Shown in pieces: positions 5,379-43,146 of a stretch of DNA of 64,000 nucleotides (position 1 is the first letter of the stretch; every line of letters begins with the position of its first letter). The notes under the pieces are model-generated. The model did not search any database and was not told where the DNA came from. It saw nothing but the letters and a program-made list of their open reading frames with translations. Location of the stretch: positions 96,001-160,000 of the forward strand of contig JACQIB010000005.1 in the NCBI GenBank assembly GCA_016198755.1, written 5' to 3'. The DNA is from Candidatus Aenigmatarchaeota archaeon (GTDB taxonomy: Archaea; Aenigmatarchaeota; Aenigmatarchaeia; Aenigmatarchaeales; JACQIB01). A program made the position numbers and the translations under genes.

Positions 5379-6161
5379 TTATAAGAGGGCATCCTTTAGT
5401 GCCGTACTGCACTCACAGGAACGCTCAGCAGGCAGGGCTTCTATTGCTGAAAACAGGAGTTTGCGTGCATTTTCAACATTTGCAGACATTGTTTTTAAAA
5501 TCTCCTGTATGCTTACATGAGAATCCTTCCAGCAGTCATAATCTGTTACAAGAGAAATGTTTGAATAGCATATTTCTGCTTCTCTTGCTAAAACAGCCTC
5601 AGGAACCAGAGTCATGCCAACCACATCAACCCCCCATTTCCTGAACAAATTGCTCTCAGCTTTAGTTGAAAAGCGGGGACCCTGAATGCAGATGTAGGTT
5701 CCTGCTGGCTTTATTGGCAGATTTAATTTTTGGCCGGCAGCTATAATAAGGGAGCGAAGCTGGGGACAAAAAGGCTCTGCAACAGAGATATGGCAGGTTT
5801 TGCTGCCTTCATAAAAGCTGGAAGAGCGGCCCGCGGTGCGGTCAATAAACTGGTCCAGCAAAACAATGTCTCCGGGCTTTAGCTCTTCCTTTAAGCTTCC
5901 GCAGGAACTGGCTGCAAGTATCCTTTTTATTCCCAACTCTTTTAAGGCCCAGATATTTGCCCTGTAATTAACTAAGTGCGCAGGATACTGGTGTCCTCTC
6001 CCATGCCTTGATAAGAAAGCAATTTTCATACCATTAAAAGTTCCTATAATAATATTGTCTGAAGGCTTCCCATATGGGGTGTGTACTTTTACCTCCTCTA
6101 TATTCTTCAGCTCTTCCGCGCTGTAAAGTCCCGAACCCCCGATAATTGCTATCTCAGGCAT
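5379..6161 (-). CDS. mtnP: S-methyl-5'-thioadenosine phosphorylase
   Basis: IAIIGGSG, TPYGKPS, LSRHG, GPRFSTKAES, GMTLVPE, VTDYDCW; start set at MPEIAII. Confidence 0.92.
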   Translation of the reverse strand: MPEIAIIGGSGLYSAEELKNIEEVKVHTPYGKPSDNIIIGTFNGMKIAFLSRHGRGHQYPAHLVNYRANIWALKELGIKRILAASSCGSLKEELKPGDIVLLDQFIDRTAGRSSSFYEGSKTCHISVAEPFCPQLRSLIIAAGQKLNLPIKPAGTYICIQGPRFSTKAESNLFRKWGVDVVGMTLVPEAVLAREAEICYSNISLVTDYDCWKDSHVSIQEILKTMSANVENARKLLFSAIEALPAERSCECSTALKDALL

Positions 6162-6204
6162 AGGGTATTTATGTGAATAGACAAAAATATAAACCTGTGA
6201 TAAA

Positions 6205-6660
6205 ATGACAATAGACAAGCCTTTATACGAGCTCAAGCCCAGCAGGATATCTTTTGTTACAAATTACTTTCTTTCTGCTGTTCTTGTTAGTATTGTTGGA
6301 GCTGTAAAAGCCCTTGGATTGTACATAAATGAAGTTGGAATTGCTGCTGCGGGGGGATTGGTTTTAATTCTTTTGGTTATTCCTGAAATTGCAAGGGTTA
6401 GGCATCTGTATAAAATTACACCTTCGCAGGTTGTTCAGGAAGTGGGAATTTTAAAAAAGCAGAGGGATAGCATTTTTCTCAATAATATTGCAGATTTGAA
6501 TTCTGACCAGAACTTTTCCCAGAGGTTGCTTATGTTTGGGGATATAAAGATTGGATCTTCCTCTGGGGCTGAGAAGATTGTTTTAAAGGGCATTAGAAAC
6601 CCAAGGGAAATTGTTATAGAGCTTGAAAGGCTAATGCACGAATACGGGAAAGATAAGTAG
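6205..6660 (+). CDS. membrane protein with bacterial PH (YdbS-like) domain
   Basis: Two N-terminal TM helices followed by YKIT...GIL...QRLLMFGDIKI pattern. Confidence 0.7.
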   Translation: MTIDKPLYELKPSRISFVTNYFLSAVLVSIVGAVKALGLYINEVGIAAAGGLVLILLVIPEIARVRHLYKITPSQVVQEVGILKKQRDSIFLNNIADLNSDQNFSQRLLMFGDIKIGSSSGAEKIVLKGIRNPREIVIELERLMHEYGKDK

Positions 6661-6661
6661 T

Positions 6662-7657
6662 TTATTCTTCAAGTCTTGGGAGTGAAGATAACTCTTTTTT
6701 CAAAGATTCAATTGTTTCAGAGCTGTTTGGGTTTATTCCCAAATCCAGAGCAAGATAAACGCTTATCAGGTCTGCCATGTACAATAATGAAAAGATTTTA
6801 CAGAGAAGGCTTTCCCCAAGAGCCCAAAGCTCTGTATTGGTTTTAAATGCCAGCCTTTTTGTTAATTCAATTCTCTGCCCAACCCTGTCATCCTCCTGAG
6901 GGTCGCGCAGCAAAACAGCTATTGTTTCCTTCGCTCTCGGATCAACAGGCCATGCCATTATCTCGTTGTGATTCATTTCTGGAAACTCTGACCAATAAGA
7001 AAGTGTTCTGCAATCTTCTTGTAACCTGTTGGAAAACCTGCGGGCTATTGATGTATATGGACCTGCACCGAAAATAATCGGAAACTTCCCTCTCAATAGA
7101 ACTGCAACGCCTTTTGCACCGTTATCCACCGAAACATAACCCAGCTCAGGTTTCATGCTGTTTAACAAATTAACTGTCTCAATTACGTTATTCTCCATAT
7201 CTAAAAACCCTGAAACATGGAGTGTTTTCAGCATTGGGAAAAATAGGGTTGCAACTGCAGCACGCGGCTGGGGTGCTTTTGGAATCTTAATAAAAACTGC
7301 TCCTGAGCTTGCACAGAGTTCTTCCAGCTTTCCTCCAGTCCCAATACCCACAACAATTGCACCGCGCTCGAGTGCTTTTTTAGTTGCTGTTAAAGTTTCT
7401 TCTGTATTTCCTGAATGGGAAACTGAAAAGAAAAGGGTCTCGCTGGAAACAAAGGCTGGTATTGAATAGGAACGGTTTACAAAAACCGGTATCGGGAGAG
7501 TTTCCAGCAATAAGGATTGTAAGATATCCCCGCCTATTGAGCTGGCACCCATGCCGGCAACAACAATATTTTTTGGCTTCTGCACAGTAGGTACAGGCAA
7601 AGACCAGGCTGCATAAATCTGGTTTGGCATCGACAATGTATAGTTTAGGAAATCCAT
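6662..7657 (-). CDS. bifunctional phosphoglucose/phosphomannose isomerase (SIS)
   Basis: AGMGAS, SHSGNTEET, QPRAA, EFPEMNHNEI motifs; start set at MDFLNY, just after the upstream stop. Confidence 0.88.
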   Translation of the reverse strand: MDFLNYTLSMPNQIYAAWSLPVPTVQKPKNIVVAGMGASSIGGDILQSLLLETLPIPVFVNRSYSIPAFVSSETLFFSVSHSGNTEETLTATKKALERGAIVVGIGTGGKLEELCASSGAVFIKIPKAPQPRAAVATLFFPMLKTLHVSGFLDMENNVIETVNLLNSMKPELGYVSVDNGAKGVAVLLRGKFPIIFGAGPYTSIARRFSNRLQEDCRTLSYWSEFPEMNHNEIMAWPVDPRAKETIAVLLRDPQEDDRVGQRIELTKRLAFKTNTELWALGESLLCKIFSLLYMADLISVYLALDLGINPNSSETIESLKKELSSLPRLEE

Positions 7658-7661
7658 ACCT

Positions 7662-8411
7662 TCATTTCCCAAGATTCTTCCCTCTTTCTCCCGTATATTC
7701 ATACTCAGAACTCTCTAATCTTTTTGCAAAGGGCTTCTCTTCTGTCAGCTCCTCAATAACATGAGCTGAAATCCCTGCTGTGCGGGGGATAACAAAAAAG
7801 GCTTTTGCTACCCTCCAATGGAACCCCATTTCAGAAATTATTGCTGCTATTGCTCCGTCTACATTCAAACACAACTTTTTTCCCTGGGATTTTTCAAGTT
7901 CTTTCTCTAGTTCAAGAGCAAAGTTGCAGTAGCTCCCGAAAATCCCAAGTTCTTTTGCAAGCTTGAAAAGTTTATGAGTTCTTGGATCTGTTGTATAAAC
8001 TTTATGTCCATAGCCTGGAAGCCTTTCTTTCTTGGCTGAAAAGGCAGAAACAACATCCCCAGCTGTTTTACCAAGGTTCTCCTGCAGTACCTTGGCACAG
8101 CCTTCACCAGCACCCCCGTGATGTTCTCCTATTGCAAGTATTCCGGCTGCCAAGCCCTGCACAAAACTTCCGGAACCGGAAGCTGCTGTCCTTGCAGACA
8201 TTATTGAAGGAGTTCCTATACTATGTTCAGCAACAGAAACCAAAATTGAATCAACCATTTTCCCTTCCTCAGCTGTTGGAAGCTTTCCCCTCAGCAGTAA
8301 ATAAACCATTTCAGCATAACTTATTTTTCCTACAAGCTCTTCCAGAGAGTAGCCACGAACAGATGTTCCCTCGTCCGTAGAGTCTGAAATTTTCGTTTTC
8401 CACTTTACCAT
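7662..8411 (-). CDS. citryl-CoA lyase (stand-alone citrate-synthase-like module)
   Basis: 249 aa, WKTKIS...VRGY, GEHHGGAGE, LPGYGHK, LNVDGAIAA, PRTAGISAH. Confidence 0.85.
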   Translation of the reverse strand: MVKWKTKISDSTDEGTSVRGYSLEELVGKISYAEMVYLLLRGKLPTAEEGKMVDSILVSVAEHSIGTPSIMSARTAASGSGSFVQGLAAGILAIGEHHGGAGEGCAKVLQENLGKTAGDVVSAFSAKKERLPGYGHKVYTTDPRTHKLFKLAKELGIFGSYCNFALELEKELEKSQGKKLCLNVDGAIAAIISEMGFHWRVAKAFFVIPRTAGISAHVIEELTEEKPFAKRLESSEYEYTGERGKNLGK

Positions 8412-9311
8412 TTAAATCGCCCCCTTTATCAGTTCCCCTAACTTATCATGGGTTTCAGCTATTAAAACACCTGCTTCTCTCAGAGCTTTTATTTTCTCTG
8501 TTGGGCTCCCTCTCCCATTTTCTATCAATGCACCGGCATGCCCAAACTGAGTTCCATGCGGGAGTTTTTCAGCAAAAACACCTGCAATAAAGGCTGCTAT
8601 AGGTTTTGTAAACTCTTTCTTTTTTATTGCTTCAGCAATCTTATCCTCGTAAGTTCCCCCAGGCTCACCGAAAATTACAACGCCCTTTGTTTCAGGATCC
8701 TTCTCAAACATTCTTAACAGATCCACAAAATCTGTTCCCAAAATTACATCCCCGCCTATTCCAATTACTGTGCTCTGTCCTAAGCCAGCAGAGCGCACAA
8801 CCCAGGCTGTTTCATTTGTCATTCCACCACTCTTTGATATTACTCCAATAGGGCCCGGTGTGTAAATTTTATCAGTATCGTCCTTTATCCCTCCCAGAAC
8901 TCCAATCTTGCACTGCTTTGGACTAACTATTCCAATAGAAGAGGGTCCAATAATCCTTGCACCATATATATTCGCATACCTTATCATCTGCACAGTATCC
9001 TGTATTGCAACCCCTTCTGTTATCAGATTTACAAGCTTAATCCCGTTGGAAACAGCTTCTATAACAGCTTCCTTCGCAGCTGCAGGCGGAACATAAACAG
9101 CTGTGCAGTTTATTTCAGGGTGGTTTTTCAAAGCTTCATGTACAGAATTATAAACAGGAACTCCTTCTGTGGTCTGTCCTCCCTTTCCAGGTGTTACCCC
9201 AGCAACAACTTTAGTTCCATATTCGAGCATTGTGCGGAGGGCTACCTGCCCAGTCCTTCCAGTAATGCCTTGTATCAAAACCCTTGTATCTTTGTTTACC
9301 AGAATGCTCAT
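8412..9311 (-). CDS. SucD-like CoA-binding/phosphohistidine subunit (citryl-CoA synthetase / ACL-type)
   Basis: [38 protein letters not shown] (phospho-His). Confidence 0.85.
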
Positions 9312-10477
9312 TTTAACCTCTCCATTATTGTTTTTGCTGTCGAAGTCATTGAAACTTCAGAACCATGCACTTCCAAATCCAGCCCTAATTCCTTTCCAAC
9401 ATCTCTTAAAAGCTGTAGTCCTTCCCTCTCATAAGGTCCAGAGCGGCGCACAACAATTGGATATTTTGGCTTCACTTCTCTCAGCGCTTCAACAACGCCC
9501 TGCATTGTCTGGTCCACTCTTGTAAAATTTGCAATCGCCCCTACAATCCATAATCCTTTCAAACAAGGCTGGCCCAGAATAGCTTTTGTTAGAGCATATA
9601 CTTTTTCTTTCGGCGGATCTCCTGAAAACTCAGCATAATTCGCCGGATTCCCACCAGCCAGAATCAAAGCATCCATAGCAGCCATGCTTCCTCCGCCTCC
9701 GGCAGCAAGAAAACCAATATCCCCCCCAAGTTCAATAAACTTTACAGAACCTCTATAGTCTGCTTCATCAACCTGCTTAACAGAAAGCTCCCTGTCTGTT
9801 AGTTCCCTTCCAACACCTATCATTCTGGGTGGGTAAACCCTGTCTTTGTGTTTGTAGCCAGCATCATTATCCAGTTCAATTAAGGCTCCAACAGCCACCA
9901 GCTCCCCCTCTTCAGTCAGGGACAATGGATTTATTTCAAGCAGCCTGCAATCCTCCTCCAGAAAGACAGAATAAAGACGCAATGCAAACTCCGATATTTT
10001 AGGTATTAATTCTGAAGGAAACCCTGCATCCACAGCAGCATCCCTTGCCTGCCACTCTTTTAACCCTAACAACTGATCTATTGGCTTCTTTACCAAATTT
10101 CCTTTTGCAAGCTCGACAACATCCACTCCCCCGCGCGTGCTTAATAGGAGAACAGGCAGCTGGGAATCTGTATCATATAGGAAACTAATGTAAAATTCTT
10201 CCTTGGTTTTTGTTTTTCTTTCAAGCAAAACAGATTTTACTTTTTCTTTCAGCACAAGAGAACCCAGCAAACTGTTTGTAAAGTTAACTGCCTCAGCAGA
10301 GTTGGAAAAGGCCTTGATAGCCCCAGCCTTCCCGCGCCCGCCTGAAAGAACCTGAGCTTTAACAACAACATCATCAAATGGCATTTCTGAAACTGCTGAA
10401 GTAGAGAGAATACCTATGGGAACTTTAATCCCGTGCTTTCTCAGCAGCTGTTTACTTTCAAACTCGTATAGTCTCAT
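9308..10477 (-). CDS. ATP-grasp subunit with ATP-citrate-lyase-type citrate-binding domain
   Basis: [27 protein letters not shown]; C-terminal [29 protein letters not shown] resemble AclB rather than SucC (GAGLAM/NFLDVGG). Confidence 0.82.
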
Positions 10478-12423
10478 TCAACCACCACTAACGCAGGCAG
10501 TTCATTCAAGCTGCGTATCCAGAAGTCAGGGCTTCCCTCTTTGTTTTTACCTATCAAAGCTGTTTTTGCACCAAAAGCATGCGCATCTTTCAAATCCCTT
10601 TCCCAGCTGTTTCCAACCACAAGAACGCGCTCTGGGTTTGTTTTCATCTGAGAAAGGATAATTTTAATATACTCTGGGGAAGGTTTCATTGTGCCCGTTT
10701 TCTCCGGAGTTATTATTGTTTCAAACATATGGAAAACCCTGCTGTTGAAAGCAGAGTTAATCTTCTTCTTTAATTCAGGTAAAAACTCATCGCTTGCTAT
10801 ACAGATATCGCATGAATCTGAGAGTATATCCAAAACATTTTCCACACCCTTCTCAACCTCCAAATCAGCACCAACCTGCTTCCAGAACTGCTCCAACCCC
10901 TTTTCTATAGTTCCTCCATTGACTTTTGTTCCCAGCTTTTCTAATGTAAGGTTAATTGCATGCTCCCTTCTCCTTTTCTCTGGTTCTTTAGAGTCTTTTA
11001 GGCTGGAAACAACTGTTTTCCATGTTCCTTCTATCAAAGCTTCTGGCAAACCTGTGCTTTTGGAAAGTATAATAAACAAATTCTCGTAAGCCTTGTCAGC
11101 ATGTATTTTATATAATGTTCCGTCAGCATCAAAAACAACTGTATCAAACTTTTTTGCAGGTATTTCCCTTTTCTTTTTAATTCCGTTAAACTCTGAGTAA
11201 TAAGTTGTATAGGATTCTATATTTTCCTTAACGAGAGTCATTGGACCTATAACAGTATTACAGCCCACTAAAACCCCTGGCATTATGTTAACTCCGGTCC
11301 CAACTTTAACATTATGCGCAAGCACACAGCCAAAATAACTCAGGCCAGTCCCAACTCTTTTCTCTCTTACTGTAGACTTTATTTCTCCCCTGTCTATCCT
11401 CCTGTTTGCTGTTGTAAAGCCTGTTCCTATCTTGCAATTTCTTCCGAAGACAGAATTGCCAAAATAACCATTGTGTACATGACAACCTTCCTGAAAAATG
11501 CTTCCTGTAACTTCGGCATGAGCACCAACCATTGTATTGTTTTCCAGATTAGAATATCCTCTTACCAGTGTTCCGTTTCCAACAACACAATTCTCTCCTA
11601 TATAACATGGACCCTTTATAATAGCGTTCTCATAAATTATAGCACCCTCGCCAATCCAGACATCTCCTATAATTTTTGCCCCTTCCTCTATTTTTGCTGT
11701 TTCCGCAATCTTCTGCCCACTCAATCTATAATTCATCAAAAGCCTGCAACAAGTCAGCATATCCCACGAATACTTTAGGGAAGGGAGTTGCTGCTCTGTT
11801 ATTATAACACTGCAATCTTTTTCCTTTCCCATTAGGTTTAGAGCTTCTTCAAATGAATATTCCTGTGCGGGAACTTTTTTGTGGAAAGAAAAGAAGTTTT
11901 TTGGCAAAAGGTAAATGCCGCATACCATTACATCTGAAGGAGCTTTGCCGTCTTCAGGTTTTTCTATTGTTTCAATAAACTTGTCTCCATTTAACTTGAA
12001 AAACCCTCCTCTTGATAAGTCCACAGAATGCTTACCAACGAAAACTGCAGCTGCGCCTGTTTCCTTCTTCTTTTCAACCATTTGCTTTACCAAAGAACCG
12101 CAGGTAAAGTGGTTTGCATTAAGTACAAAGAAGTCCCCGTCTATCAGGGATTCAGCCTGCATTAGGGCATCTCCCATTCCCTTTGGTTCTTTTTGCACAA
12201 CAAACTGCAAATCAAAAGAGAATTTCTTTCCTGCAAATTCTTTCTCAGCCCCCCTCTCAGGACCCTGAACAACAACAACTTTATTTAACCCAGCTTCTTC
12301 CAGTTCTATCAATGTCCATTCCAAAAGGCTGCGGCCCATTATTTTGAATAAAGCTTTCTTATGCTTCTCAGAAAGCGGCCAGAATCTTTTTGATTCACCT
12401 GCGGATAAAACAACTGCCTGCAT
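10474..12423 (-). CDS. GlmU-like sugar-1-phosphate nucleotidyltransferase/acetyltransferase fused to a C-terminal HAD hydrolase
   Basis: LSAGESKRFWPL and QKEPKGMGDA; hexapeptide repeats (IIGDVWIGEGAII...); then VVFDADGTL...MKPSPE...VVGNSWERD. Confidence 0.85.
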   Translation of the reverse strand: MQAVVLSAGESKRFWPLSEKHKKALFKIMGRSLLEWTLIELEEAGLNKVVVVQGPERGAEKEFAGKKFSFDLQFVVQKEPKGMGDALMQAESLIDGDFFVLNANHFTCGSLVKQMVEKKKETGAAAVFVGKHSVDLSRGGFFKLNGDKFIETIEKPEDGKAPSDVMVCGIYLLPKNFFSFHKKVPAQEYSFEEALNLMGKEKDCSVIITEQQLPSLKYSWDMLTCCRLLMNYRLSGQKIAETAKIEEGAKIIGDVWIGEGAIIYENAIIKGPCYIGENCVVGNGTLVRGYSNLENNTMVGAHAEVTGSIFQEGCHVHNGYFGNSVFGRNCKIGTGFTTANRRIDRGEIKSTVREKRVGTGLSYFGCVLAHNVKVGTGVNIMPGVLVGCNTVIGPMTLVKENIESYTTYYSEFNGIKKKREIPAKKFDTVVFDADGTLYKIHADKAYENLFIILSKSTGLPEALIEGTWKTVVSSLKDSKEPEKRRREHAINLTLEKLGTKVNGGTIEKGLEQFWKQVGADLEVEKGVENVLDILSDSCDICIASDEFLPELKKKINSAFNSRVFHMFETIITPEKTGTMKPSPEYIKIILSQMKTNPERVLVVGNSWERDLKDAHAFGAKTALIGKNKEGSPDFWIRSLNELPALVVVE

Positions 12424-12424
12424 T

Positions 12425-13393
12425 CTAATCACCAATTACCTCCAGTAAGGCTGCTGCTGTTTCCGCAGGTTTGTGTTTTATTATATGCGGCCAGTCTTTC
12501 ATTCCGCCCCCCCTAACCCTGTCTTTCTTTTGGGCCTCGCCCAGTGGAGTTTTGTCCACCAAATCCTTAACGATAATTTTTATTCCATCTACATTATCTA
12601 TAGTAACTAGGTCCATTCCAGAATTTTTGTAAAATTCCAGCACATCATCTGAAGGAGTGCCATTGTTTGCAATAACAACATCGGGTTTTCTGCCTGCATA
12701 CTTCTCAATCTCAGCACAGTGCATAGATAATGTAAAACCGGATCTGGAGGTAATGTTTGCTACGTATATGATCTTTTTGCCTTTCAGAGATTCTTTTACT
12801 CCTTCAGACAGAAGTATGGGTATTGTGCTTGTGGAAAGGCCGCCAGGAGCCAGCACAACAAAATCAGCATTTTTTATACTTTCTATCACAGCTTCTGTTG
12901 CCTTTGCAGAAGGATCTAAAAAAAGCCTGTCTACTCTGCTGCTATTATCCCTTGTTCCAATCTCCTGCTCCCCTTTCAGTATTTTCCCATCACCAAGCTC
13001 AGCAACAATATCTGTTTTTTCCTCTGAAACGGGCAAAACCTGACCACGTGCGCCAGAGAGCTTGCCCAGTTTTTCCAGTGCAGCTGTAAGGGAGCCCTCT
13101 GTTTTTATTTTTGAAACAAGCATAAGGTTACCTAAAGAAACACCTTTCATCTCACTCTCTGTAAACCTGTAGGATAAAAGCTTTGTAACAGGATTTTCAG
13201 GATCTGCTAAAGCAGCCAAACAGCTGCGTGCATCACCTATTCCTATAATTCCAAACTGCTCCCTTAAAATTCCTGAATGTCCACCGTTGTCTGTTACAGT
13301 AACAACAGCTGTTAAATTATGGGGAGTGTTGCGCAGCCCGCGTAAGAGATGAGCAAGACCGGAGCCGCCACCGAAGAGAACGATTTTCTTCAT
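12425..13393 (-). CDS. YvcK/GlmR (UPF0052, CofD-like) family protein
   Basis: LFGGGSGL, VTVTDNGGHSGILR, GDARSCL, SLGNL, ADFVVLAPGGLSTS. Confidence 0.88.
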   Translation of the reverse strand: MKKIVLFGGGSGLAHLLRGLRNTPHNLTAVVTVTDNGGHSGILREQFGIIGIGDARSCLAALADPENPVTKLLSYRFTESEMKGVSLGNLMLVSKIKTEGSLTAALEKLGKLSGARGQVLPVSEEKTDIVAELGDGKILKGEQEIGTRDNSSRVDRLFLDPSAKATEAVIESIKNADFVVLAPGGLSTSTIPILLSEGVKESLKGKKIIYVANITSRSGFTLSMHCAEIEKYAGRKPDVVIANNGTPSDDVLEFYKNSGMDLVTIDNVDGIKIIVKDLVDKTPLGEAQKKDRVRGGGMKDWPHIIKHKPAETAAALLEVIGD

Positions 13394-13398
13394 TATAA

Positions 13399-14100
13399 TC
13401 ACTCCTCCATTAGCTTTCCAGCCAGCTTCACATCAGCATCCAAAAACTCTTCAATGCTATCAAAGTCCATCCAACCGCTGGAAACCTTAAAGGTTTTTAC
13501 ATACTGCTTTGCAGCAAGCTTGTTAACAGCTTCCACTAAAGACAATTCACCTCCATCTATTGGAACAATGCTTTCTATCTCTTCAAAAATATTTGATTCA
13601 AACCTGTAGAGGGCTGTGTTTATCAGGTTTGTTGGGGGGTTTGCAGGCTTTTCTATTATTGCTTTCAGTTTATCCCCCTCCGTTATAACAACTCCATATT
13701 CATGTGGATTTGAAACCTCTGTAACACCAACAGCTGTCCCAGTTTCTGCAAGAGCTCTCCCTACATCAGCTGTTGAATAAAGGGAATCACCCATAAGGAC
13801 AATGAACGGCTCGCGCCCGACAAACTTTTCAGCTGCTGCAACAGCATGCGCTGTTCCTCTTAGCTCACCCTGTTCTATCAGTGTTATGCCAGAAAAGTTT
13901 TCTTTCTTCAAAAATTCCATTATCTTTTCCTTCTTATACCCAACAACAATGCCAATCTCATCATTCCCTGATTTTTTCAAAGCAGTGACAAGATACCAAA
14001 GAAGCGGCTTCTGGCCTATATTTATCAAAACCTTTGGTATGCTTTCTGTCAGCGGGGCTGCCCTTCTGCCCATCCCTGCTGCCAAAATAACTGCTTTCAT
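13399..14100 (-). CDS. sugar-phosphate nucleotidyltransferase
   Basis: ILAAGMGRR.APLTESIPKVL, GTAHA, MGD, YGVV, IEKP. Confidence 0.88.
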   Translation of the reverse strand: MKAVILAAGMGRRAAPLTESIPKVLINIGQKPLLWYLVTALKKSGNDEIGIVVGYKKEKIMEFLKKENFSGITLIEQGELRGTAHAVAAAEKFVGREPFIVLMGDSLYSTADVGRALAETGTAVGVTEVSNPHEYGVVITEGDKLKAIIEKPANPPTNLINTALYRFESNIFEEIESIVPIDGGELSLVEAVNKLAAKQYVKTFKVSSGWMDFDSIEEFLDADVKLAGKLMEE

Positions 14101-14741
14101 TTCATACCCTCCAATGCTTTTCCTTTATTCAGAAACTCTGTTAGCGATACGAAGACTTCATCAGCTGCAGATAAACCAGAAACATAAGACTTGTTTGGTA
14201 TCGCAACACAATACAAACCTGCGTTCTTCGCATCTCTCACTCCCTTTGCAGAGTCTTCAAGTACAAAGCAGTCTTCAGGCTTTAATTTCATTTTAATTAC
14301 AGCATTTCTATACGCCGCAGTCTTTGTGCCAAAATCTTCTGAGGAATTTATTATAGGGAAGTATACATCCAGACCTGTGCCCTTTAGTATTTTTGCTATT
14401 ATGCCCTTTGAACTATTGGAAACCAAAGCCAATTTTAATCCATTCTTCTGGAGTATCAATAACAACTGTTTATACGCTTTTTTAGTCTTTATTTTTGCAG
14501 GTATGGCATCCAGAACAAGTCTATTATATCGAGATACTATAGCCTCGTCTGAAAGCATTATTTTGTAATCGTTCCTGTATACTTCTATATTTTCAGTAGC
14601 GCTATTCCCTATAAACTTTTTATAATCATCCAACGTTAAATTAAATCCAAGGGTTTTTAAAAATGCCTTCTTGCCTAGCCAGTGGAATTCCTCTGTATCT
14701 GCAATAACTCCATCCATATCGGAAATAAATCCTTTGAACAT
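14097..14741 (-). CDS. HAD-family phosphatase/mutase (beta-PGM/CbbY-like)
   Basis: DMDGVIADTE, VSNS, VLEDSAKGVRDAKNAG. Confidence 0.85.
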   Translation of the reverse strand: MFKGFISDMDGVIADTEEFHWLGKKAFLKTLGFNLTLDDYKKFIGNSATENIEVYRNDYKIMLSDEAIVSRYNRLVLDAIPAKIKTKKAYKQLLLILQKNGLKLALVSNSSKGIIAKILKGTGLDVYFPIINSSEDFGTKTAAYRNAVIKMKLKPEDCFVLEDSAKGVRDAKNAGLYCVAIPNKSYVSGLSAADEVFVSLTEFLNKGKALEGMK

Positions 14742-14742
14742 T

Positions 14743-17700
14743 TTATTTCACCGTCACCGATTTGGCTAAATTTCTTGGAAAGTCAGGATTGCATCCTCTC
14801 ATTATGGCAAGGTGGTAGGCGAGAACCTGCATTGGTATTATCTGGCAGATGGAATTGAAAACTCCCGCATCCCATACTCTTATCCAGTGGTCAAACACCT
14901 CGTTGTTCTTGGGTCCGACTCCGATTATAATTGCTCCACGGGCTTTCAGCTCTGTTGCATTGCTTATAATATCTTTTTCTGTGTCCTCTGAAACAAAAAC
15001 AATACATGGAGTTCCTTTGTCTATCAATGCTATTGTTCCATGTTTCAGCTCCCCCCCAGGATAGGCTTCTGCATGTATATAGGATATCTCTTTTATTTTC
15101 AGCGCTGCTTCCATTGCTGTTGTATACTGCAAACCTCTCCCAATCAGATAGATATGCTCTTTGTCCTTTAGCAGCTCTGCAACCTTTTTTGTATGCTCCC
15201 TTGCAGCTCCTGAGGTTAAGTGGTATAAAATGTAGATAAGGTTCTGAAGTTTTTCTTTCCCGTCATCATATTTGCCTGCAACAGCATATGCCAAAAGGGT
15301 TAGCAGAGCAACCTGTGCAGTAAAGGCTTTGGTGGAAACAACTGAGATTTCTGGACCAGCGTTTGTCATAAGGTAATGGTCTGCCTCCCTCATTATAGTA
15401 GATCCCATAACATTTACAATGGCTACAGTTTCTGCTCCCCTCTCCTTTGCAGCCTTTATTGGAAGGAGGGTATCCATTGTTTCCCCTGACTGGGAAACTG
15501 CTATAACAAGAGTTTTCTCATTTATGAAGTCGGCATAGTTCATGAACTCTGAGCCTGTTATTGTTACTGTATTCATCTTTGCAACTTTTGCGAAAATATA
15601 GTTAGCATGCCTGCATGCATAGGAAGCTGTGCCGCATGCCACAAAAACAACATTCTCAGCTTTTCTTATCAGCTTTGCAATATTCTCAACTTTTTGCCTG
15701 TTTTGAAGTAAAGAACGCTTAACTGTATCCACTTGTTCTAGAATTTCCTTTATTGTAAAGTGATCGAAATTGCCTTTTTTTGCCTGTTCGGGAGACCAGT
15801 CTATTATATCCGGCTTCCTATCTACAACTTCTGCTGTCAGAAGATTTTCCAGCTTAACTCCGCTCTTGTCTATTATTGCCAGTTCATTATCCCTGAAAAA
15901 TAAAACCTTCTTTGTATGGTCTAAAAAAGCAGGTATATCAGAAGCTATAAAATATTCCTTCTCCCCTACACCTATAACAAGCGGGGAGTCCCTGCGCGCA
16001 GCCAGAAGCATTGGATAATCCTTATGGACAGCCAAAATAGCATAGGCTCCGTCTATTGTTTTTACTGTTTCCTTGAAAGCTTTTAGGAAATCCATTCCCA
16101 TATCCATAAAGTACTGGACTGCGAGGGGGATGGTTTCCGTGTCTGTCTGGCTGGCAAATTTGTATCCTTTTGACTGGAGAAAATTGCGCAGCTCCTGGTA
16201 ATTCTCAACTATCCCGTTATGTATAACAGCAATTTTTCCGTCATTTGAAAGGTGTGGGTGGGCATTTTCTTTCGTTACGCCTCCATGAGTTGCCCACCTA
16301 GAGTTGTGACTTATTAAACCATCTGCAACAAAATTTTCTGTCCCTGGAACTTGTAAGTCATAGACATAAGGAACATCGCTGACAAATTTTCTTATTTCAG
16401 TTATTTTTTGAAAAACAACATCGCTATTCAAATATCTACCAAGATCTGACGAGACTTCTATATTTCCTTTTGCCTGCATCAAGCTTAATAATTGAAGAGC
16501 TGATGTTTTTGTTATAAAGGCTTTTCCGTAAAGCGCTTTGCCCTTTATAGCATATTTCTGGTACATTTCTGCTTTTGTAAGCGGGATGGATTTGTAAGAA
16601 TGTGAGTGTCCCTTGATCATTTTAGAAAGTATACGCTCAGCTTTTTGTAGCTTTTCCGTGCTTGTAAAGCCAATGTTTTTTAAGAATCCCTCTACATCAT
16701 CCGCTGTGTTTATGTTTAGTCCATATACTGGACCCCATACTCTTTCATATTTACTGAAGGAAGACAATATTCCGAATCTTAACAAAAGGAGCTTTAGAGC
16801 CTTTATTAAATTTTCATTATTCATTCTAATCATAATTTGCCTGGATTTTGTGTTGCAGGCTGACTCTGCGTCAAACAATCCGCGTATAAAACCTCTTAAC
16901 TCTTCATCTGGTGTTCTGCCAATGAGTGGGGGCAGAGCCTTGCCTCTTCCAGTCTTGCATATTTCAGGAAAGTTGTACCTTATCCAATCGCATAAAAATT
17001 TGCTATTAATTTCTAATAGGAATGCCTCAGCTTCTTTTAACTTAACTATTCTGCTATTTACATTAAACAGTTTTTTTGCAATTTGTGCATATTTTTTCAA
17101 AACATCTTTTCTGGAGTCTTTAAACCTGATACACCTCTCGTGCACATGTCCGTCTCCAACTAAATAACCTAAGAACTGCAAAAGATCTTCACTGGTGGTT
17201 TCAGGCAATATAATATCTTTTCCGTGTATAGAGTAAACTACTAAAAACCTTTCAGGCTGTATGGAACATATTTGAGATAATTTTATCATAAAACTCTCTT
17301 CAAAATTTCTATCCATGCTACAGAAGTGATCTAAAACAGACCTGCTTAAGCCTGCAATAGTTGCAAATTTATCTATTGTAAGATTATTTTGCCTTAAATA
17401 AGACTTGAAGAGCTCTACAACATCTTTATCATATTTGTAATATCTCTTTAGTGGAACCGTACTTAGATGTTGCGTTTTCCCCTCTATAGTTATTCTAGAT
17501 GGGCATATTAAAATATCTCCGGTGGATAACTCACTTACATGCTTTACAGAAATTTTGCCACTATTTGCAACAAACATCCTGTGCTCTCCAGTACAGACTA
17601 AAGTATTTGCTGGGGTTTTTATCTCAAAAAGCTCATGAGGACTTTCGTGTCTCATTGCATAACAGCTTCTGGTTTTAAGCTTTAGAGTGTCAAAATCTAA

Positions 17701-18000
17701 TGTCATAACTTCTTTATAATCCATTATATCTTCTATTTTGCAGACTGTACCGTCGGCCAGCTGTATATAACTGTTAGGATGTAAGCAGTGGGCAAATGCA
17801 ATCTTTCCCTCAAACTTCTGGGCATCAAAGCCTGAAAAAACCTGATTTACCTTCCCAACATCCTTGTGAACAAGAACTCCGGAACCGTTTACAATAGCTA
17901 CCCCAGCAGAGTCATACCCCCTGTATTCCAGCTTTTTTATTCCATCCAAAACTATTTCCGTCCCGTTTCTCTCCCCAAAATATCCTATTATTCCGCACAT
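14743..18000 (-). CDS. glmS: glutamine--fructose-6-phosphate aminotransferase, intein-containing
   Basis: MCGIIG, LEYRGYDSAG, RWATHG, SQSGET, ELKHG, PRNLAKSVTVK. Confidence 0.97.
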   Translation of the reverse strand: MCGIIGYFGERNGTEIVLDGIKKLEYRGYDSAGVAIVNGSGVLVHKDVGKVNQVFSGFDAQKFEGKIAFAHCLHPNSYIQLADGTVCKIEDIMDYKEVMTLDFDTLKLKTRSCYAMRHESPHELFEIKTPANTLVCTGEHRMFVANSGKISVKHVSELSTGDILICPSRITIEGKTQHLSTVPLKRYYKYDKDVVELFKSYLRQNNLTIDKFATIAGLSRSVLDHFCSMDRNFEESFMIKLSQICSIQPERFLVVYSIHGKDIILPETTSEDLLQFLGYLVGDGHVHERCIRFKDSRKDVLKKYAQIAKKLFNVNSRIVKLKEAEAFLLEINSKFLCDWIRYNFPEICKTGRGKALPPLIGRTPDEELRGFIRGLFDAESACNTKSRQIMIRMNNENLIKALKLLLLRFGILSSFSKYERVWGPVYGLNINTADDVEGFLKNIGFTSTEKLQKAERILSKMIKGHSHSYKSIPLTKAEMYQKYAIKGKALYGKAFITKTSALQLLSLMQAKGNIEVSSDLGRYLNSDVVFQKITEIRKFVSDVPYVYDLQVPGTENFVADGLISHNSRWATHGGVTKENAHPHLSNDGKIAVIHNGIVENYQELRNFLQSKGYKFASQTDTETIPLAVQYFMDMGMDFLKAFKETVKTIDGAYAILAVHKDYPMLLAARRDSPLVIGVGEKEYFIASDIPAFLDHTKKVLFFRDNELAIIDKSGVKLENLLTAEVVDRKPDIIDWSPEQAKKGNFDHFTIKEILEQVDTVKRSLLQNRQKVENIAKLIRKAENVVFVACGTASYACRHANYIFAKVAKMNTVTITGSEFMNYADFINEKTLVIAVSQSGETMDTLLPIKAAKERGAETVAIVNVMGSTIMREADHYLMTNAGPEISVVSTKAFTAQVALLTLLAYAVAGKYDDGKEKLQNLIYILYHLTSGAAREHTKKVAELLKDKEHIYLIGRGLQYTTAMEAALKIKEISYIHAEAYPGGELKHGTIALIDKGTPCIVFVSEDTEKDIISNATELKARGAIIIGVGPKNNEVFDHWIRVWDAGVFNSICQIIPMQVLAYHLAIMRGCNPDFPRNLAKSVTVK
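16303..17787 (-). mobile_element. intein (495 aa) with LAGLIDADG homing endonuclease in glmS
   Basis: Junctions FAH|CLHPNS and VYDLQV..NFVADGLISHN|SRW; LAGLIDADG motifs FLGYLVGDG and FIRGLFDAES. Confidence 0.95.
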
Positions 18001-18060
18001 GCTTCTCCCTTAATCCCCTTTATTTAAACCCTTACTGAATCATAGGTACAAAAGAGACTT

Positions 18061-18124
18061 TATCTTTTAGATAAGTAAGCTATTTAAAGCCCTATTAAAA
18101 ATATTATAATAGCACTAAAAGATA
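18061..18124. promoter_or_regulatory. 10-bp inverted repeat pair in the divergent glmS/regulator promoter
   Basis: TATCTTTTAG (18061-18070) and CTAAAAGATA (18115-18124) flank TATA-like sequences. Confidence 0.45.
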
Positions 18125-18139
18125 GTTTGTAGTGGTTGT

Positions 18140-19051
18140 ATGGCAAGGATTTTTGAGACAGTGAAGGGTGAAACGCTTGGTCAGAGCGCTAAGTTACTGC
18201 AGCCCAGCCAAATAAAGCCTGCTTTATCCCAGCTTTCTTGGAAAATTTTGAAAAGCTTGGCTGAAAGGAGTTCATATCCAAAAGCTGTTGCAAGATCTCT
18301 GGGGGAGAATGAACAGAAAGTATATTACCATATACGCAGGCTGGAAAAAGCTGGCTTAATCAGGATTGAAAGCAGGATAGAGAGGGGTGGTGGTGTAGCA
18401 AAAATATACTCTATAACAGCGCCTGCGTTTGCTTTGATTCTAAAACCGCTTGAACCTGTCTCAGCCGGAATAAAGGAAACTCCTGAAGTCTTGGAGCCTT
18501 TTGTGCAGAATGAAAAACTAAACTGCAAAATTATTGTAGCCAGCCCTGAGCCTCATGGGTATACTGGAGGGAGGGGGAAGGACGCGCCTGTTTCAACAGA
18601 GCTTGGATTATTCTTGGGGCAGTTTGTCAATAGCTTTCCACCGCGCTCTGTTTTATTTGATGCTGAAGCGCATGAAAATATTTTAAAACAAAATATTATT
18701 GTTATTGCAGGGCCTGGAGTTAACTCTGTTACTTTTAAGGCAAACAAAAAGCTTCCAATAAGGTTTGAGGGAAAGGGGGAATTTTTCACATCCCTGTTTT
18801 CAACTGCAACAGGGAAAAAGTACGCAGATGAAAGCTGCGGAGTTGTTTTGAAAATAAAAAATCCTTTCAATCCTGCAGCAGAGCTTATTCTTTTAGCTGG
18901 ACGCAGAGCAGCTGGAACGCGCGCTGCGATTGTTGCCTTTACTCAGAAGCTGGAGTATATTTCTGGTGGAAAAAAGCACTGGGCACATGTTGTTAAAGGA
19001 TTTGATACAAACAGGGATGGTTTTGTGGATGATGTGAAAGTGCTGGAGTAA
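18140..19051 (+). CDS. ArsR-like winged-helix regulator with C-terminal alpha/beta domain
   Basis: WKILKSL..SYPKAVARSLGENEQKVYYHIRRLEKAGLI HTH; C-terminal NIIVIAGPGVN...LLAG domain; divergent from the glmS operon. Confidence 0.8.
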   Translation: MARIFETVKGETLGQSAKLLQPSQIKPALSQLSWKILKSLAERSSYPKAVARSLGENEQKVYYHIRRLEKAGLIRIESRIERGGGVAKIYSITAPAFALILKPLEPVSAGIKETPEVLEPFVQNEKLNCKIIVASPEPHGYTGGRGKDAPVSTELGLFLGQFVNSFPPRSVLFDAEAHENILKQNIIVIAGPGVNSVTFKANKKLPIRFEGKGEFFTSLFSTATGKKYADESCGVVLKIKNPFNPAAELILLAGRRAAGTRAAIVAFTQKLEYISGGKKHWAHVVKGFDTNRDGFVDDVKVLE

Positions 19052-19058
19052 AACTGCT

Positions 19059-19199
19059 TTATGTTGAAAAATTTGCAGCGTAAGCTCCCGAATAAGGATC
19101 AAAATACTCCGCATAGCCGGCTTTCCTCATAAAATATCTCTGCATGTCTTTCCTTGTTTCCTCTATCTCTTTTTCTGTTTTTACTCTGTCATCTTCCAT
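19059..19199 (-). CDS. 46-aa small protein
   Basis: Not in the ORF track. MEDDRVKTEKEIEETRKDMQRYFMRKAGYAEYFDPYSGAYAANFST with a GGTGA RBS; overlaps the end of the upstream wHTH gene. Confidence 0.55.
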   Translation of the reverse strand: MEDDRVKTEKEIEETRKDMQRYFMRKAGYAEYFDPYSGAYAANFST

Positions 19200-19464
19200 T
19201 TTTCTCACCCCCATTTTTCAAAACCCTTCCAAACTCTGTTACTCTCAGAAAAACTGAGCCGTTCCCATACTCCAGAAAACCAAGCCTCCTGAACTTCCTC
19301 ATGCTGTGCCAGACTGAAGTCTCTGAGAAACCATGCTTTTCAGACACTGTCCTTACAAAACTGGAAGCTGTAACAGACCTGTCAAAAACAAAAGCCTCCT
19401 GCAAAACCAGCAGTTGCCTCCTGCTTAAAGCAGCCCTAGCTAATGCGGAAACCTGCTCTTTCAC
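19189..19464 (-). CDS. small winged-helix protein
   Basis: SEKHGFSETSVWHSMRKFRRLGFLEY...RVTEFG wHTH pattern; GTG start overlaps the stop of a 10-codon uORF. Confidence 0.65.
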   Translation of the reverse strand: MKEQVSALARAALSRRQLLVLQEAFVFDRSVTASSFVRTVSEKHGFSETSVWHSMRKFRRLGFLEYGNGSVFLRVTEFGRVLKNGGEKNGR

Positions 19465-19646
19465 CCTGTTAGTTGGTAGATACCAATCCCCATGAGAATC
19501 ACCATTTTAGAAAGCTTATGGGAGACTTTACAGTATAAGAATCAGGATTTTGCCTGAGTTTAAAGTCTCTGCTTTCATTTTCAAAACCTTTTAATCATTG
19601 GAAGGTAGAAATATTTAAAGCATATCTACTAAAGTTTTAGGGCATA

Positions 19647-19982
19647 TTACTCTATTAATTTATAGATAATATGTCTTATTTTATTAAAAGTTTCTATTTT
19701 AATTTCTCCAATTTTTAACTTAATAAGAGATTTGCTTATGCTGAAAATTCTGTCAACCTTAACTTTGCTATCTGTGATTAGCCTGCCAGTTTCTAGGTCT
19801 TTATTTGTTATTAAAAGTGTGTGTTCCCTTATTTGTATATTTGTTGTCATGGGGACTACTATTATATCATCAAATTTTGAATTGTAATTGTTATTCGAGA
19901 GTACTATAACAGGCCTTACCTTAGAGGTTTTCATATCAGAAAATGGAAAAGATAATAATACTATATCCCTTTGCGAGACCAC
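19647..19982 (-). CDS. mazF: MazF/PemK-family toxin
   Basis: QRDIVLLSFPFSD..SKVRPVIVLSN..IVVPMTT. Confidence 0.9.
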   Translation of the reverse strand: MVSQRDIVLLSFPFSDMKTSKVRPVIVLSNNNYNSKFDDIIVVPMTTNIQIREHTLLITNKDLETGRLITDSKVKVDRIFSISKSLIKLKIGEIKIETFNKIRHIIYKLIE

Positions 19983-20257
19983 TTCTTACCACCTTTTAAG
20001 TAGAGATTCCATATTTCATCCTCTTTGTTGTTCCACAACGCCTTGACAGATAGTTCGGCAGCCTTTTGTATATCCTCAAAAGTATCTATTTTCCTAATTG
20101 CTATTTCTGGTTTTTCTAATATAATATTTTTATCTTTACTTATCAATAAAAGCTCATCGCCTTTTTTAATTCCAAACTCTCTCTGTATTATTTTAGGTAG
20201 AGTTATCTGGCCTTTAGATGATACTTTAATCGAACTTATTGTAGGCAACCTTTTCAT
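19961..20257 (-). CDS. AbrB/MazE-family antitoxin
   Basis: KVSSKGQITLPK..FGIKKGDEL; overlaps mazF. Confidence 0.88.
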   Translation of the reverse strand: MKRLPTISSIKVSSKGQITLPKIIQREFGIKKGDELLLISKDKNIILEKPEIAIRKIDTFEDIQKAAELSVKALWNNKEDEIWNLYLKGGKKWSRKGI

Positions 20258-41662: not shown

Positions 41663-41715
41663 ATTTTTATTGTTTTTAATTTAAGCTTTTAAGACTGTGC
41701 TGTGAGTTGTTTTTA

Positions 41716-43146
41716 ATGCAGTGGCCTATTTTCTATGGAGATGAATTGAAACTGGGAAACCCTGAAAGCCCTGTCGGGGTCTGCACATTATGGACAAAGC
41801 GAGATGTTATATATAAAAATCTTCCTGAGGGAAAGTTTGCTGTATGTGGAAACCTGTATACTGTGCAGGGCATAAACCCTATGCTAAAGAATGTTTTGGC
41901 TAACCCGAAAATAAGGTATATTGTTATTTGTGGTGCAGATTTAATGAAAAGCGGAGAGGCGCTGATTAACTTCCTGAAAAATGGGATTGGGGATGATAGG
42001 AAAATAATTGGATCTTCGGGCTATATTGATTCAAATGTGGATACTGAGCTTGTTAATAAATTTAGGGAAAATGTGAAGATAATTGATTTGAGGGGGAGGG
42101 AAGCTGATGTGCCAGCTGTTTTAGAGTCTATAAAGGAAGAGGCAAAGCCCTTTATGGAGCCTGTCTGGATAACAGAGCTGGATAAGTCATCTGCCCCACT
42201 GAAAACAGAAGATGTGGTTTTCAAAGTCCGCGGGCCCTCAATACCATGGGTCTGGCTGAGGGCTCTAAATAATGTGATGAAGTTTGGGGAAGAGAAGGAT
42301 ACAGATTATAAAATCAGGCAGAAGGAGATACTGGATTTGGTCTCTGTTATAGATGGGGATGAACCAGCACTCCCGGCATGGCTGCCAATAACAGAAAGGG
42401 ATTTGGAAAACTACTATGAAACATTCTTTTCAAAGGAAAGGCCTCTAGGAGTTGAGTATACATATGGAGAGAGGCTTTTCAACTACCAGCTCTCACATGT
42501 GCCTGATAAATTTTTAGAGGAATTTGGAGAAGCGCAGGATCAGATAGGAGCTGTTGTAAGAATCTTAAAGGAGAGACCGCACACGCGCAGGGCTGTTGCT
42601 TTTACACTGAAAGAGGGAGATTCAGGTTCTAAAAACCCACCTTGCTTAACCCAAATAGTATGGAGTATTAGAGCAGGAAAGCTGGTACAGACTGCAAATT
42701 TCAGATCCCATGATATTTTTGGGGCTTGGTTGTTGAACGCATTTGCTCTCAGAAGGCTGCAGAGGCAGATAGCTGAACGGGTTGGAATTGGGCTGGGAAA
42801 GCTTGTTATTTTATCAAATTCAGCGCATGTTTATGAAAACAACTGGAAGGAAGCTGAGAAAATACTGGAAAAGAGCTTTGCAGGCAGGGTTCTCCCGCTG
42901 GTTGAGGATGAACATGGCTATTTTATTGTAAAAGTAGAACAGGGGATTTTTGTTGAACACTATACAAAGGAAGGACTGCCTTCAGGATTTGTTTTCCATG
43001 GGAAGGATGCCCAAATACTGTATAGGAAAATACTGCACGAGGGGTTGGTCTCCCTTATGGATCATGCAGCCTATCTTGGCCATCAGTTGGCAAAGGCTGA
43101 ATACTGCCTGAAAACAGGGGAAAAATTTGTGCAGGATAAAGCATAG
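41716..43146 (+). CDS. thyA: thymidylate synthase fused to an N-terminal MtrA-like domain and a C-terminal DUF4346-like domain
   Basis: N-term VGVCTLWT..GNLYT..NVLANPKIRYIVICG..SGEAL; TS core YTYGERL, RRA, PPCL, FRSHD..N, SAHVYE; C-term GYFIV..DHAAYLGHQLAKAE..FVQD. Confidence 0.85.
   Translation: MQWPIFYGDELKLGNPESPVGVCTLWTKRDVIYKNLPEGKFAVCGNLYTVQGINPMLKNVLANPKIRYIVICGADLMKSGEALINFLKNGIGDDRKIIGSSGYIDSNVDTELVNKFRENVKIIDLRGREADVPAVLESIKEEAKPFMEPVWITELDKSSAPLKTEDVVFKVRGPSIPWVWLRALNNVMKFGEEKDTDYKIRQKEILDLVSVIDGDEPALPAWLPITERDLENYYETFFSKERPLGVEYTYGERLFNYQLSHVPDKFLEEFGEAQDQIGAVVRILKERPHTRRAVAFTLKEGDSGSKNPPCLTQIVWSIRAGKLVQTANFRSHDIFGAWLLNAFALRRLQRQIAERVGIGLGKLVILSNSAHVYENNWKEAEKILEKSFAGRVLPLVEDEHGYFIVKVEQGIFVEHYTKEGLPSGFVFHGKDAQILYRKILHEGLVSLMDHAAYLGHQLAKAEYCLKTGEKFVQDKA

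Follow-up and report, generated by a model that had tools for sequence, protein, structure and literature searches.

The closest described relatives of the system reported here are enzymes of citrate cleavage. In Hydrogenobacter thermophilus, citryl-CoA synthetase (CCS) comprises a large subunit with ATP-grasp and citrate-binding domains and a SucD-like small subunit, citryl-CoA lyase (CCL) is a separate protein (structures 6hxq and 6hxp), and the resulting three-gene split serves a step of the autotrophic reductive tricarboxylic acid (rTCA) cycle. ATP-citrate lyase (ACL; Chlorobium AclBA and eukaryotic ACLY) carries out the same chemistry. Eukaryotic ACLY converts exported citrate into cytosolic acetyl-CoA for biosynthetic acetylations, and a functional resemblance is drawn here to an archaeal system. 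When CCS/CCL and ACL genes turn up in metagenomes, they are habitually taken to indicate carbon fixation by the rTCA cycle. Homologs in DPANN archaea and bacteria of the candidate phyla radiation (CPR) are described as misannotated succinyl-CoA synthetase (SCS) or citrate synthase and, in the portion of that work available to us, were treated solely in terms of rTCA evolution (10.1101/2022.10.25.513756); another paper mentions aclAB enrichment in Saccharimonadia (PMC12577380). The DNA analysed here, referred to as the window, is a stretch of 64,000 nucleotides from a Candidatus Aenigmatarchaeota archaeon (contig JACQIB010000005.1, positions 96,001 to 160,000). It carries CCS/CCL genes inside an operon for hexosamine synthesis (window positions 6662-18000). 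Sequence comparison makes it likely that this operon joins the pathway to UDP-N-acetylglucosamine (UDP-GlcNAc) to a split, ATP-dependent citrate cleavage that supplies the acetyl donor for N-acetylation. The parts are already known; what is new is their combination in a hexosamine operon. An initial annotation of the window had proposed the combined module as undescribed, and no description was found in the literature searched, which excluded subscription journals: no paper joined "citryl-CoA" with "glmS", "citrate lyase" occurred with YvcK only in an unrelated Streptomyces paper, and papers joining "citryl-CoA" with N-acetylglucosamine were off-topic by their titles and the start of their abstracts.

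Gene identities were assigned by Pfam and NCBIfam family models with their cut-offs. On this basis the genes first labelled "ACL-like" are assigned to a split, Hydrogenobacter-type CCS/CCL. The label was right in pointing to citrate cleavage and wrong in implying the fused enzyme: domains homologous to those of ACL are present, but the alpha subunit (8412-9311) and the lyase (7662-8411) are unfused and encoded by separate, abutting open reading frames (ORFs). The CCS large (beta) subunit (9308-10477, minus strand) contains ATP-grasp_2 (PF08442, 7e-43) and Citrate_bind (PF16114, 1.2e-33) domains, both above cut-off. Its best match in the PDB was the large subunit of H. thermophilus CCS (6hxq_B, 1.1e-63), followed by Chlorobium AclB. 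When the C-terminal domain was searched alone, ACL beta, CCS, M. concilii ACLY-A and human ACLY (1e-29 to 3e-19) outranked every SCS beta subunit (2e-16 or weaker). Human ACLY residues G309, N346, F347, T348 and R379, which we take to be citrate contacts, align with G286, N317, F318, T319 and R345 of the window protein; G286, N317, F318 and R345 were invariant across 26 aligned DPANN and CPR sequences. The SucD-like small (alpha) subunit (minus strand; CoA_binding 2.8e-26, Ligase_CoA 3.7e-18) matches the CCS small subunit 6hxq_A at 1.6e-72, with alignment of a GHAGA motif that is presumably the catalytic phosphohistidine motif. The lyase (minus strand), a short protein of the citrate-synthase fold, scored 317 bits against NF004869 (cut-off 212) and matched H. 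thermophilus CCL (6hxp_A) at 2.8e-72 over residues 4-245. It retains the HGGA, GHKVY and NVD motifs of the fold, presumably the catalytic His/His/Asp as in citrate synthase.

A substrate other than citrate, such as another hydroxy-tricarboxylate or a dicarboxylate that is converted to its CoA ester and then cleaved, would leave the link to acetyl-CoA wrong or only partly right. This was judged quite improbable. In its favour, SCS alpha (2yv2, 1.3e-87) is a better match for the alpha subunit than the CCS small subunit is, and databases label these proteins as succinate- or acetate-CoA ligases. Set against this are the citrate-binding domain with its conserved contact positions and a lyase that is about as near the characterised H. 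thermophilus CCL as members of the family get. SucCD is likewise an NDP-forming ligase of two homologous subunits, with the phosphohistidine motif in alpha, but the beta subunit of the window, with its C-terminal domain of the ACL citrate-binding type, falls far under the cut-offs of the SCS beta models (NF001913, 243.5 bits against 370; TIGR01016, 242 against 375.6) and of the malate-CoA ligase models. The alpha subunit is also under the cut-offs of the SCS alpha models (310-312 bits against 336 and 353). A second, more SCS-like ligase pair lies elsewhere in the same genome, within a mevalonate operon.

The operon comprises nine co-directional minus-strand ORFs. Read from glmS to the isomerase gene, the junctions measure +1, -4, -4, -11, -4, -4, 0 and -41 nt, which is the layout of a translationally coupled operon; the genes would be expected to be co-transcribed. 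The nine genes and their overlapping or abutting junctions, as listed in the initial annotation, were confirmed by ORF coordinates and family models. The first gene, glmS (14743-18000, minus strand), encodes glutamine–fructose-6-phosphate transaminase as a 1085-aa precursor, which begins Met-Cys, carries a GATase (glutaminase) and two SIS domains and exceeds the equivalog cut-off of TIGR01135 (634.4 bits against 418). Within it lies an intein with a LAGLIDADG endonuclease (residues 72-566; 16303-17787, minus strand; Intein_splicing 4e-25, LAGLIDADG_3 9e-19), which was overlooked in the initial annotation and accounts for the length of the protein. The intein is 495 aa long, starts with Cys, ends in His-Asn, is followed by Ser at position +1, and is inserted between ..AFAH and SRWATHG. 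Spliced GlmS would be 590 aa, the size of the ortholog in a sister genus (genome G002), in which the intein is not present; GlmS activity in the window's organism needs intein splicing. Next in order are a stand-alone HAD-IA hydrolase that is beta-phosphoglucomutase (beta-PGM)-like (14097-14741, minus strand; HAD_2 1.9e-23) and a stand-alone sugar-1-phosphate nucleotidyltransferase of 233 aa (13399-14100, minus strand; NTP_transferase 2.8e-37), the latter matching the N-terminal half of the Arch_glmU model at 200 bits. They are followed by a YvcK/GlmR-family (CofD-related) protein (12425-13402, minus strand) and a probable archaeal GlmU (10474-12435, minus strand; likely start, ATG at 12423). 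Residues 5-406 of this GlmU align full-length with Sulfolobus tokodaii ST0452 (5z09, 4e-41), covering the nucleotidyltransferase and the LbH acetyltransferase; the window protein differs in an extra C-terminal HAD domain (about residues 427-647). It scored 272.2 bits against TIGR03992 (cut-off 292.1). Among 5.8 billion clusters, only two other proteins (89% and 81% identical) were found to carry the GlmU-HAD fusion. The three citrate-cleavage genes come next, and the operon ends with a bifunctional phosphoglucose/phosphomannose isomerase (PGI/PMI; 6662-7702, minus strand; TIGR02128 229.4 bits against 213.9, bact-PGI_C 2.1e-36).

In the proposed route, PGI/PMI would provide fructose 6-phosphate and GlmS would convert it to glucosamine 6-phosphate. 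A mutase, for which no enzyme was found in this genome, would then form glucosamine 1-phosphate, to be acetylated and uridylylated by GlmU. CCS (beta plus alpha) would activate imported citrate with ATP and CoA, and CCL would split citryl-CoA into acetyl-CoA and oxaloacetate. The acetyl-CoA so formed from citrate would be the donor for the GlmU acetyltransferase in an organism apparently unable to oxidise pyruvate. UDP-GlcNAc would feed a large set of N-glycosylation and nucleotide-sugar genes elsewhere in the genome. These include a glycosylation island on contig C6 (L139 7504-18687, L140 1-17140) with an AglH-like GT4, STT3/AglB, a flippase, PMT_2 and GT1 transferases, a UDP-GlcNAc 2-epimerase, a DegT aminotransferase with a GFO/IDH/MocA oxidoreductase, radical SAM genes and several epimerases or dehydratases. 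UDP-GlcNAc and further N-acetylations therefore have clear uses.

The neighbourhood of ACL-like genes was surveyed in a scan of relatives with one genome per species (tblastn, ORF clustering, and Pfam on cluster representatives), in which 311 were found and the best 80 loci were kept. Linkage to glmS, glmU or yvcK is not confined to this genome. Among 41 genomes of the same taxonomic order, close beta-subunit homologs occurred only in the window's own genome (G000), G002 and G006. In G002, which belongs to a different, sister genus, the arrangement is regulator, then glmS, HAD, nucleotidyltransferase, PGM/PMM (446 aa), GlmU (442 aa, without HAD), ccsB, ccsA and ccl, the divergent regulator facing glmS. 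The G006 contig reads glmU-yvcK-ccsB-ccsA, locus L010 reads glmU-yvcK-ccsBA, and L011 reads glmS-PGM/PMM-glmU-ccsBA-ccl. A Woesearchaeota contig is among the loci with the linkage. CPR genomes contain a stereotyped operon of a TrmB-like regulator, HAD, nucleotidyltransferase, glmS, (HAD), yvcK, a 110-aa GNAT, ccsB, ccsA and ccl. Counts were restricted to loci with at least 4 kb upstream. Of 42 loci in the CPR clade, 34 qualified (8 were dropped), and their upstream regions contained glmS in 29, yvcK in 31, both in 29 and the GNAT in 27. None of these genes was found upstream of the 13 qualifying loci among 22 of other DPANN, nor of the 9 among 11 from Micrarchaeota, Chloroflexota and Acidobacteriota. 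The nine short DPANN loci dropped from these counts include L010 and L011, both of which are linked. L033, L035, L061, L064 and L075 lay outside the tree and were omitted from the locus counts; none shows glmS or yvcK by tblastn. In one DPANN subclade (L020-L030), the region downstream of ccl encodes a conserved GGDEF-domain protein, a C39-like peptidase and an Obg-like GTPase.

These data bear on the possibility that the adjacency is accidental or an assembly artefact, a reading that is barely credible and is effectively refuted. The genome is a metagenome-assembled genome (MAG) of 6 contigs, which would favour it. The same order nevertheless recurs in another genus, on other contigs and in dozens of CPR genomes; several junctions are 4-nt overlaps; and two public groundwater runs, possibly from the samples that gave rise to this genome, contain the stretch from 6000 to 19500 unbroken and without differences in single long contigs. 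No RNA run was found to contain it.

The gene directly upstream of ccsB encodes an acetyl-CoA-using acetyltransferase in both versions of the operon, GlmU with its LbH domain in the window and the GNAT (Pfam GNAT, 1.4e-17) in CPR. In none of the 32 CPR operon genomes did a full-length GlmU exceed the cut-off; their best GlmU matches span model positions 2 to about 240 in frames of about 250 aa and correspond to the operon's own nucleotidyltransferase (e.g., G046:C14:5846-6559). An even sample of 151 genomes was taken from the class of peptidoglycan-making CPR bacteria around G046. Loss of full-length GlmU was considered as a marker of CCS-positive genomes and rejected, since a full-length bifunctional GlmU was found in 0/151 irrespective of CCS, the uridylyltransferase half standing alone. 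Orthologs of the GNAT were present in 12 of the 151 genomes, 5 of 11 that were CCS-positive versus 7 of 140 that were CCS-negative (Fisher p 5e-4), and in 2 of 5 loci examined in CCS-negative genomes the GNAT still accompanied yvcK and/or glmS. Assignment of the GNAT as a GNA1 ortholog was rejected: GNA1 chains matched only at 1e-4 to 2e-3, behind uncharacterised GNATs, there was no NCBIfam match, and by sequence the protein is a generic GNAT.

A quick maximum-likelihood tree of 78 beta subunits placed the window clade (window, G002, G006 and L011) among DPANN, apart from the CPR clade. This tree does not decide between one origin of the linkage and two: a tree joining both linked groups was not rejected by the approximately unbiased (AU) test (p 0.665), the constrained tree being better by 14.7 log-likelihood units. 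Three features favour separate assembly: the different acetyltransferase types, the non-homologous regulators (no homology by BLASTP between the archaeal and the CPR TrmB-like regulator, E 1.6) and the presence of GlmM in the archaeal version. The HAD, nucleotidyltransferase and yvcK genes common to both versions favour transfer. With one origin or two, the linkage is kept across two domains. In the same tree, an Anaerolineae contig (L073) stood out in carrying two ccsB-ccsA pairs in tandem, the second very divergent (branch length 4.85).

The genome (0.89 Mb, 6 contigs, 89% complete) carries the archaeal markers MCM, TBP, TFIIB, topoisomerase VI and GatD/E. Absences were assessed by six-frame family searches over this genome, with control genomes positive in each. 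Pyruvate:ferredoxin oxidoreductase (POR_N), E1_dh of pyruvate dehydrogenase (PDH), PFL, AMP-binding/ACS, PTA and thiolase were not found, nor were aconitase or any citrate synthase other than CCL. Because no POR or 2-oxoglutarate oxidoreductase (OGOR), aconitase or further citrate synthase was found, gene content excludes the rTCA cycle for this genome. The initial annotation's view that citrate cleavage here does not serve reverse TCA agrees with these searches. Relative to H. thermophilus, then, the CCS/CCL genes of the archaeon occur without a TCA cycle and in a hexosamine operon, and the citrate would necessarily be external. Operation in the synthetic direction (acetyl-CoA plus oxaloacetate to citrate and ATP), or survival from a former TCA cycle, reductive or oxidative, was considered very improbable. 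In favour of this reading, the ACL reaction lies near equilibrium. A preprint that places DPANN and CPR homologs in the context of rTCA evolution (10.1101/2022.10.25.513756) also speaks for it. Against it, aconitase, POR/OGOR, citrate synthase and PDH were not found in the genome, an ADP-forming acetyl-CoA synthetase was the sole upstream acetyl-CoA source found, and citrate would be left without an onward route.

The distribution of POR was compared with that of CCS/CCL in both lineages. In the archaeal order, POR_N was found in 33 of 41 genomes; none of the three genomes with CCS/CCL had it. In this order glmS was above cut-off in 20 of the 41 genomes, so most of these relatives make hexosamine without CCS/CCL. 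In the 151-genome CPR sample, Citrate_bind was above cut-off in 11 genomes and POR was present in 81: 1 of the 11 CCS-positive versus 80 of the 140 CCS-negative genomes. Fisher tests gave p 0.005 for the order and p 0.003 for the CPR class, values that overstate the case, as the genomes are mutually related and the centre genome was picked for having the operon. Among GNAT-positive genomes, POR occurred in 0 of 5 with CCS versus 5 of 7 without. CCS/CCL presence is thus negatively associated with POR in both lineages, an association to be taken as indicative.

Gene context and distribution together support well a putative tie of citrate cleavage to hexosamine N-acetylation and not to rTCA, as first proposed in the initial annotation; its further suggestions of a self-contained operon and of a HAD mutase found no support. 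Besides the overstated Fisher values, several findings weigh against this reading. POR and the operon occurred together in 10 of 33 operon-bearing genomes (32 CPR plus the genome of L011). The window's genome encodes an NDP-(ADP-)forming acetyl-CoA synthetase (alpha, 438 aa, TIGR02717 392 bits against a cut-off of 567; ATP-grasp_5 beta about 1 kb upstream), which could supply acetyl-CoA from acetate by a second route and weakens any strict claim that CCS/CCL is the only source. HMG-CoA synthase in the mevalonate operon is a second acetyl-CoA sink, so that the supply is not exclusive to N-acetylglucosamine. No specific citrate carrier was found: DASS was not found in the genome, and a TctA-family protein was rejected as a specific citrate carrier since it is present in 37 of 41 relatives irrespective of CCS. 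Furthermore, glmS lies near 0 of the 13 countable other-DPANN CCS/CCL loci, and no GlmM-family (PGM_PMM_I) gene was found in the 89%-complete genome.

Several of these points would fit CCS/CCL as a housekeeping system that provides acetyl-CoA and oxaloacetate throughout the cell (for isoprenoid lipids, protein acetylation, aspartate or malate), the adjacency to hexosamine genes reflecting envelope co-regulation or operon hitch-hiking and no dedicated supply. The genome has a complete mevalonate operon with HMG-CoA synthase, and thiolase was not found; carbon from oxaloacetate could be used by malic enzyme and glutamate dehydrogenase; and the other-DPANN loci are without adjoining glmS. This explanation was considered unlikely. 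An acetyl-CoA-using acetyltransferase, GlmU LbH or GNAT, stands immediately upstream of the ligase in archaeal and CPR versions alike, and several of the unlinked DPANN loci still adjoin nucleotide-sugar genes (GDP-mannose dehydratase, UDP-glucose dehydrogenase, a polysaccharide flippase) and methyltransferases. Under the reading of a hexosamine-linked citrate cleavage, CCS/CCL is probably also a general acetyl-CoA source of the cell, e.g., for HMG-CoA synthase, with hexosamine acetylation as a co-regulated sink. In a scan of 239 soluble ORFs (270-700 aa, E <= 1e-20; ORFs outside these sizes were mostly unscanned), enolase, GAPDH, PGK and pyruvate kinase were not listed; the same scan recovered an iPGM-like protein, a PfkB kinase, malic enzyme, glutamate dehydrogenase and many nucleotide-sugar enzymes.

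Without a phosphoglucosamine mutase, the route of GlmS, GlmM and GlmU is incomplete as encoded, and the description of the operon as self-contained in the initial annotation could not be maintained. The missing GlmM may be a gap in the assembly, because 34 of 35 other operon genomes have a member of the PGM/PMM family and a PGM/PMM gene lies inside the G002 operon, in the slot held by yvcK in the window. For the same reason there is no general need for a HAD mutase. The suggestion that one of the HAD domains covers the mutase step found no support: the stand-alone HAD is under every NCBIfam equivalog cut-off (bPGM 63.8 against 189, HxpB 65 against 191, PpaX 34 against 218), and the fused HAD is nearest to YfnB/YjjG-type hydrolases (YfnB 1.4e-8), not to beta-PGM. 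The stand-alone HAD belongs to an orthologous cluster found in 17 loci. Phosphatase, mutase and pyrophosphatase are candidate roles for the HADs.

The YvcK protein belongs to the CofD-related family TIGR01826 (231.6 bits against a cut-off of 196) and not to the F420-type CofD (TIGR01819, 44 bits). Its close homologs share 84% and 63% identity with it, and their contigs, at 9405 and 14644 bases, equal in length those bearing the close ccsB homologs. Beyond these two, identity was at most 45%; the named relatives are YvcK proteins of Bacillota at about 40%, and the YvcKs of CPR operons share 27-38%. Family membership and nearest named homologs bear out the assignment of a bacterial-type YvcK in an archaeon. 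Bacillus GlmR is reported to bind UDP-GlcNAc and proposed to stimulate GlmS (PMC7525490, PMC6171935). As in B. subtilis, a YvcK-family protein above cut-off shares an operon with glmS; the archaeal case differs in its host, in the lack of a yvcJ or whiA partner in the operon and in the presence of GlmM in the corresponding slot of the sister genus. By analogy with Bacillus, binding of UDP-GlcNAc and stimulation of GlmS may apply here, and YvcK/GlmR would probably tune GlmS to the UDP-GlcNAc level.

A regulator with an ArsR-type winged helix-turn-helix and a C-terminal S_layer_C-like domain is encoded divergently from the operon (18140-19051, plus strand; HTH_20 7.4e-7), as had been noted from the start. 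Its nearest Atlas clusters combine HTH_20/HTH_5 with the S_layer_C-like domain PF05124 (structure TM 0.86), and its ortholog in G002, also divergent from glmS, is 43% identical. The divergent intergenic region (18001-18139) contains a perfect inverted repeat with 10-nt arms (18061-18070 and 18115-18124) 44 nt apart. The repeat exists as originally described, but G002 does not retain it in inverted form, which rules it out as a conserved operator. Just past the regulator lies a pair of a MazE-like antitoxin and a PemK/MazF-like toxin (19647-20257, minus strand).

A broader proposal extends to ultra-small symbionts without pyruvate oxidation: the split ATP-citrate-lyase system would be a dedicated module converting host-derived citrate to acetyl-CoA for N-acetylation of amino sugars, wired into the hexosamine operon beside an acetyltransferase, which is of the GlmU type in one DPANN lineage and is a mini-GNAT in CPR. 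This is put forward tentatively, with somewhat less than even confidence. If true, the module would parallel, in prokaryotes, the way in which eukaryotes feed citrate through ACLY into the hexosamine pathway, and citrate would be a key currency between host and episymbiont, a named metabolite that these symbionts must obtain from hosts or surroundings. The proposal would account for the orphan "rTCA" genes that have been reported from CPR and DPANN, and for the acetyl-CoA source for peptidoglycan and N-glycan precursors in cells without pyruvate oxidation. The habit of annotating such genes as rTCA would need correction for CPR and DPANN genomes, since here they are found in genomes without a TCA cycle and inside an envelope-sugar operon. 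A GlmR-type regulator would, by analogy, operate across the bacterial-archaeal boundary. The pathway would comprise about seven soluble enzymes, which makes it directly testable in vitro.

Further observations were made elsewhere in the genome. The mevalonate operon (G000:C5, L009 3605-17199) encodes polyprenyl synthase, HMG-CoA synthase, MVD, two NUDIX proteins, a HAD protein, two HMG-CoA reductase-like proteins and GHMP kinases. The SucCD-like pair within it (L009 8965-10901), in a genome in which thiolase was not found, may supply HMG-CoA synthase with a CoA ester, perhaps acetoacetyl-CoA. Beside this operon lies a bacterial-type NAD-dependent glycerol-3-phosphate dehydrogenase (GpsA domains), and an Fe-ADH_2 (glycerol-1-phosphate-dehydrogenase-like) gene is present elsewhere (the two at G000:C5, L131 10255-11199 and L137 7169-8218); this one archaeon may encode both glycerol-phosphate routes. 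On contig C2, an LD-carboxypeptidase (Peptidase_S66; G000:C2, L112 1-912, minus strand), is found here in an archaeal genome; its possible substrates include peptidoglycan fragments of a bacterial partner or prey. The same contig encodes a 606-aa amino-acid permease with a fused C-terminal SAM methyltransferase domain (G000:C2, L113 1-1821, plus strand). Finally, a 479-aa ORF of the window (41707-43146, plus strand) is an unusual fusion of MtrA-like, thymidylate-synthase and PterinBD-DUF4346 domains.

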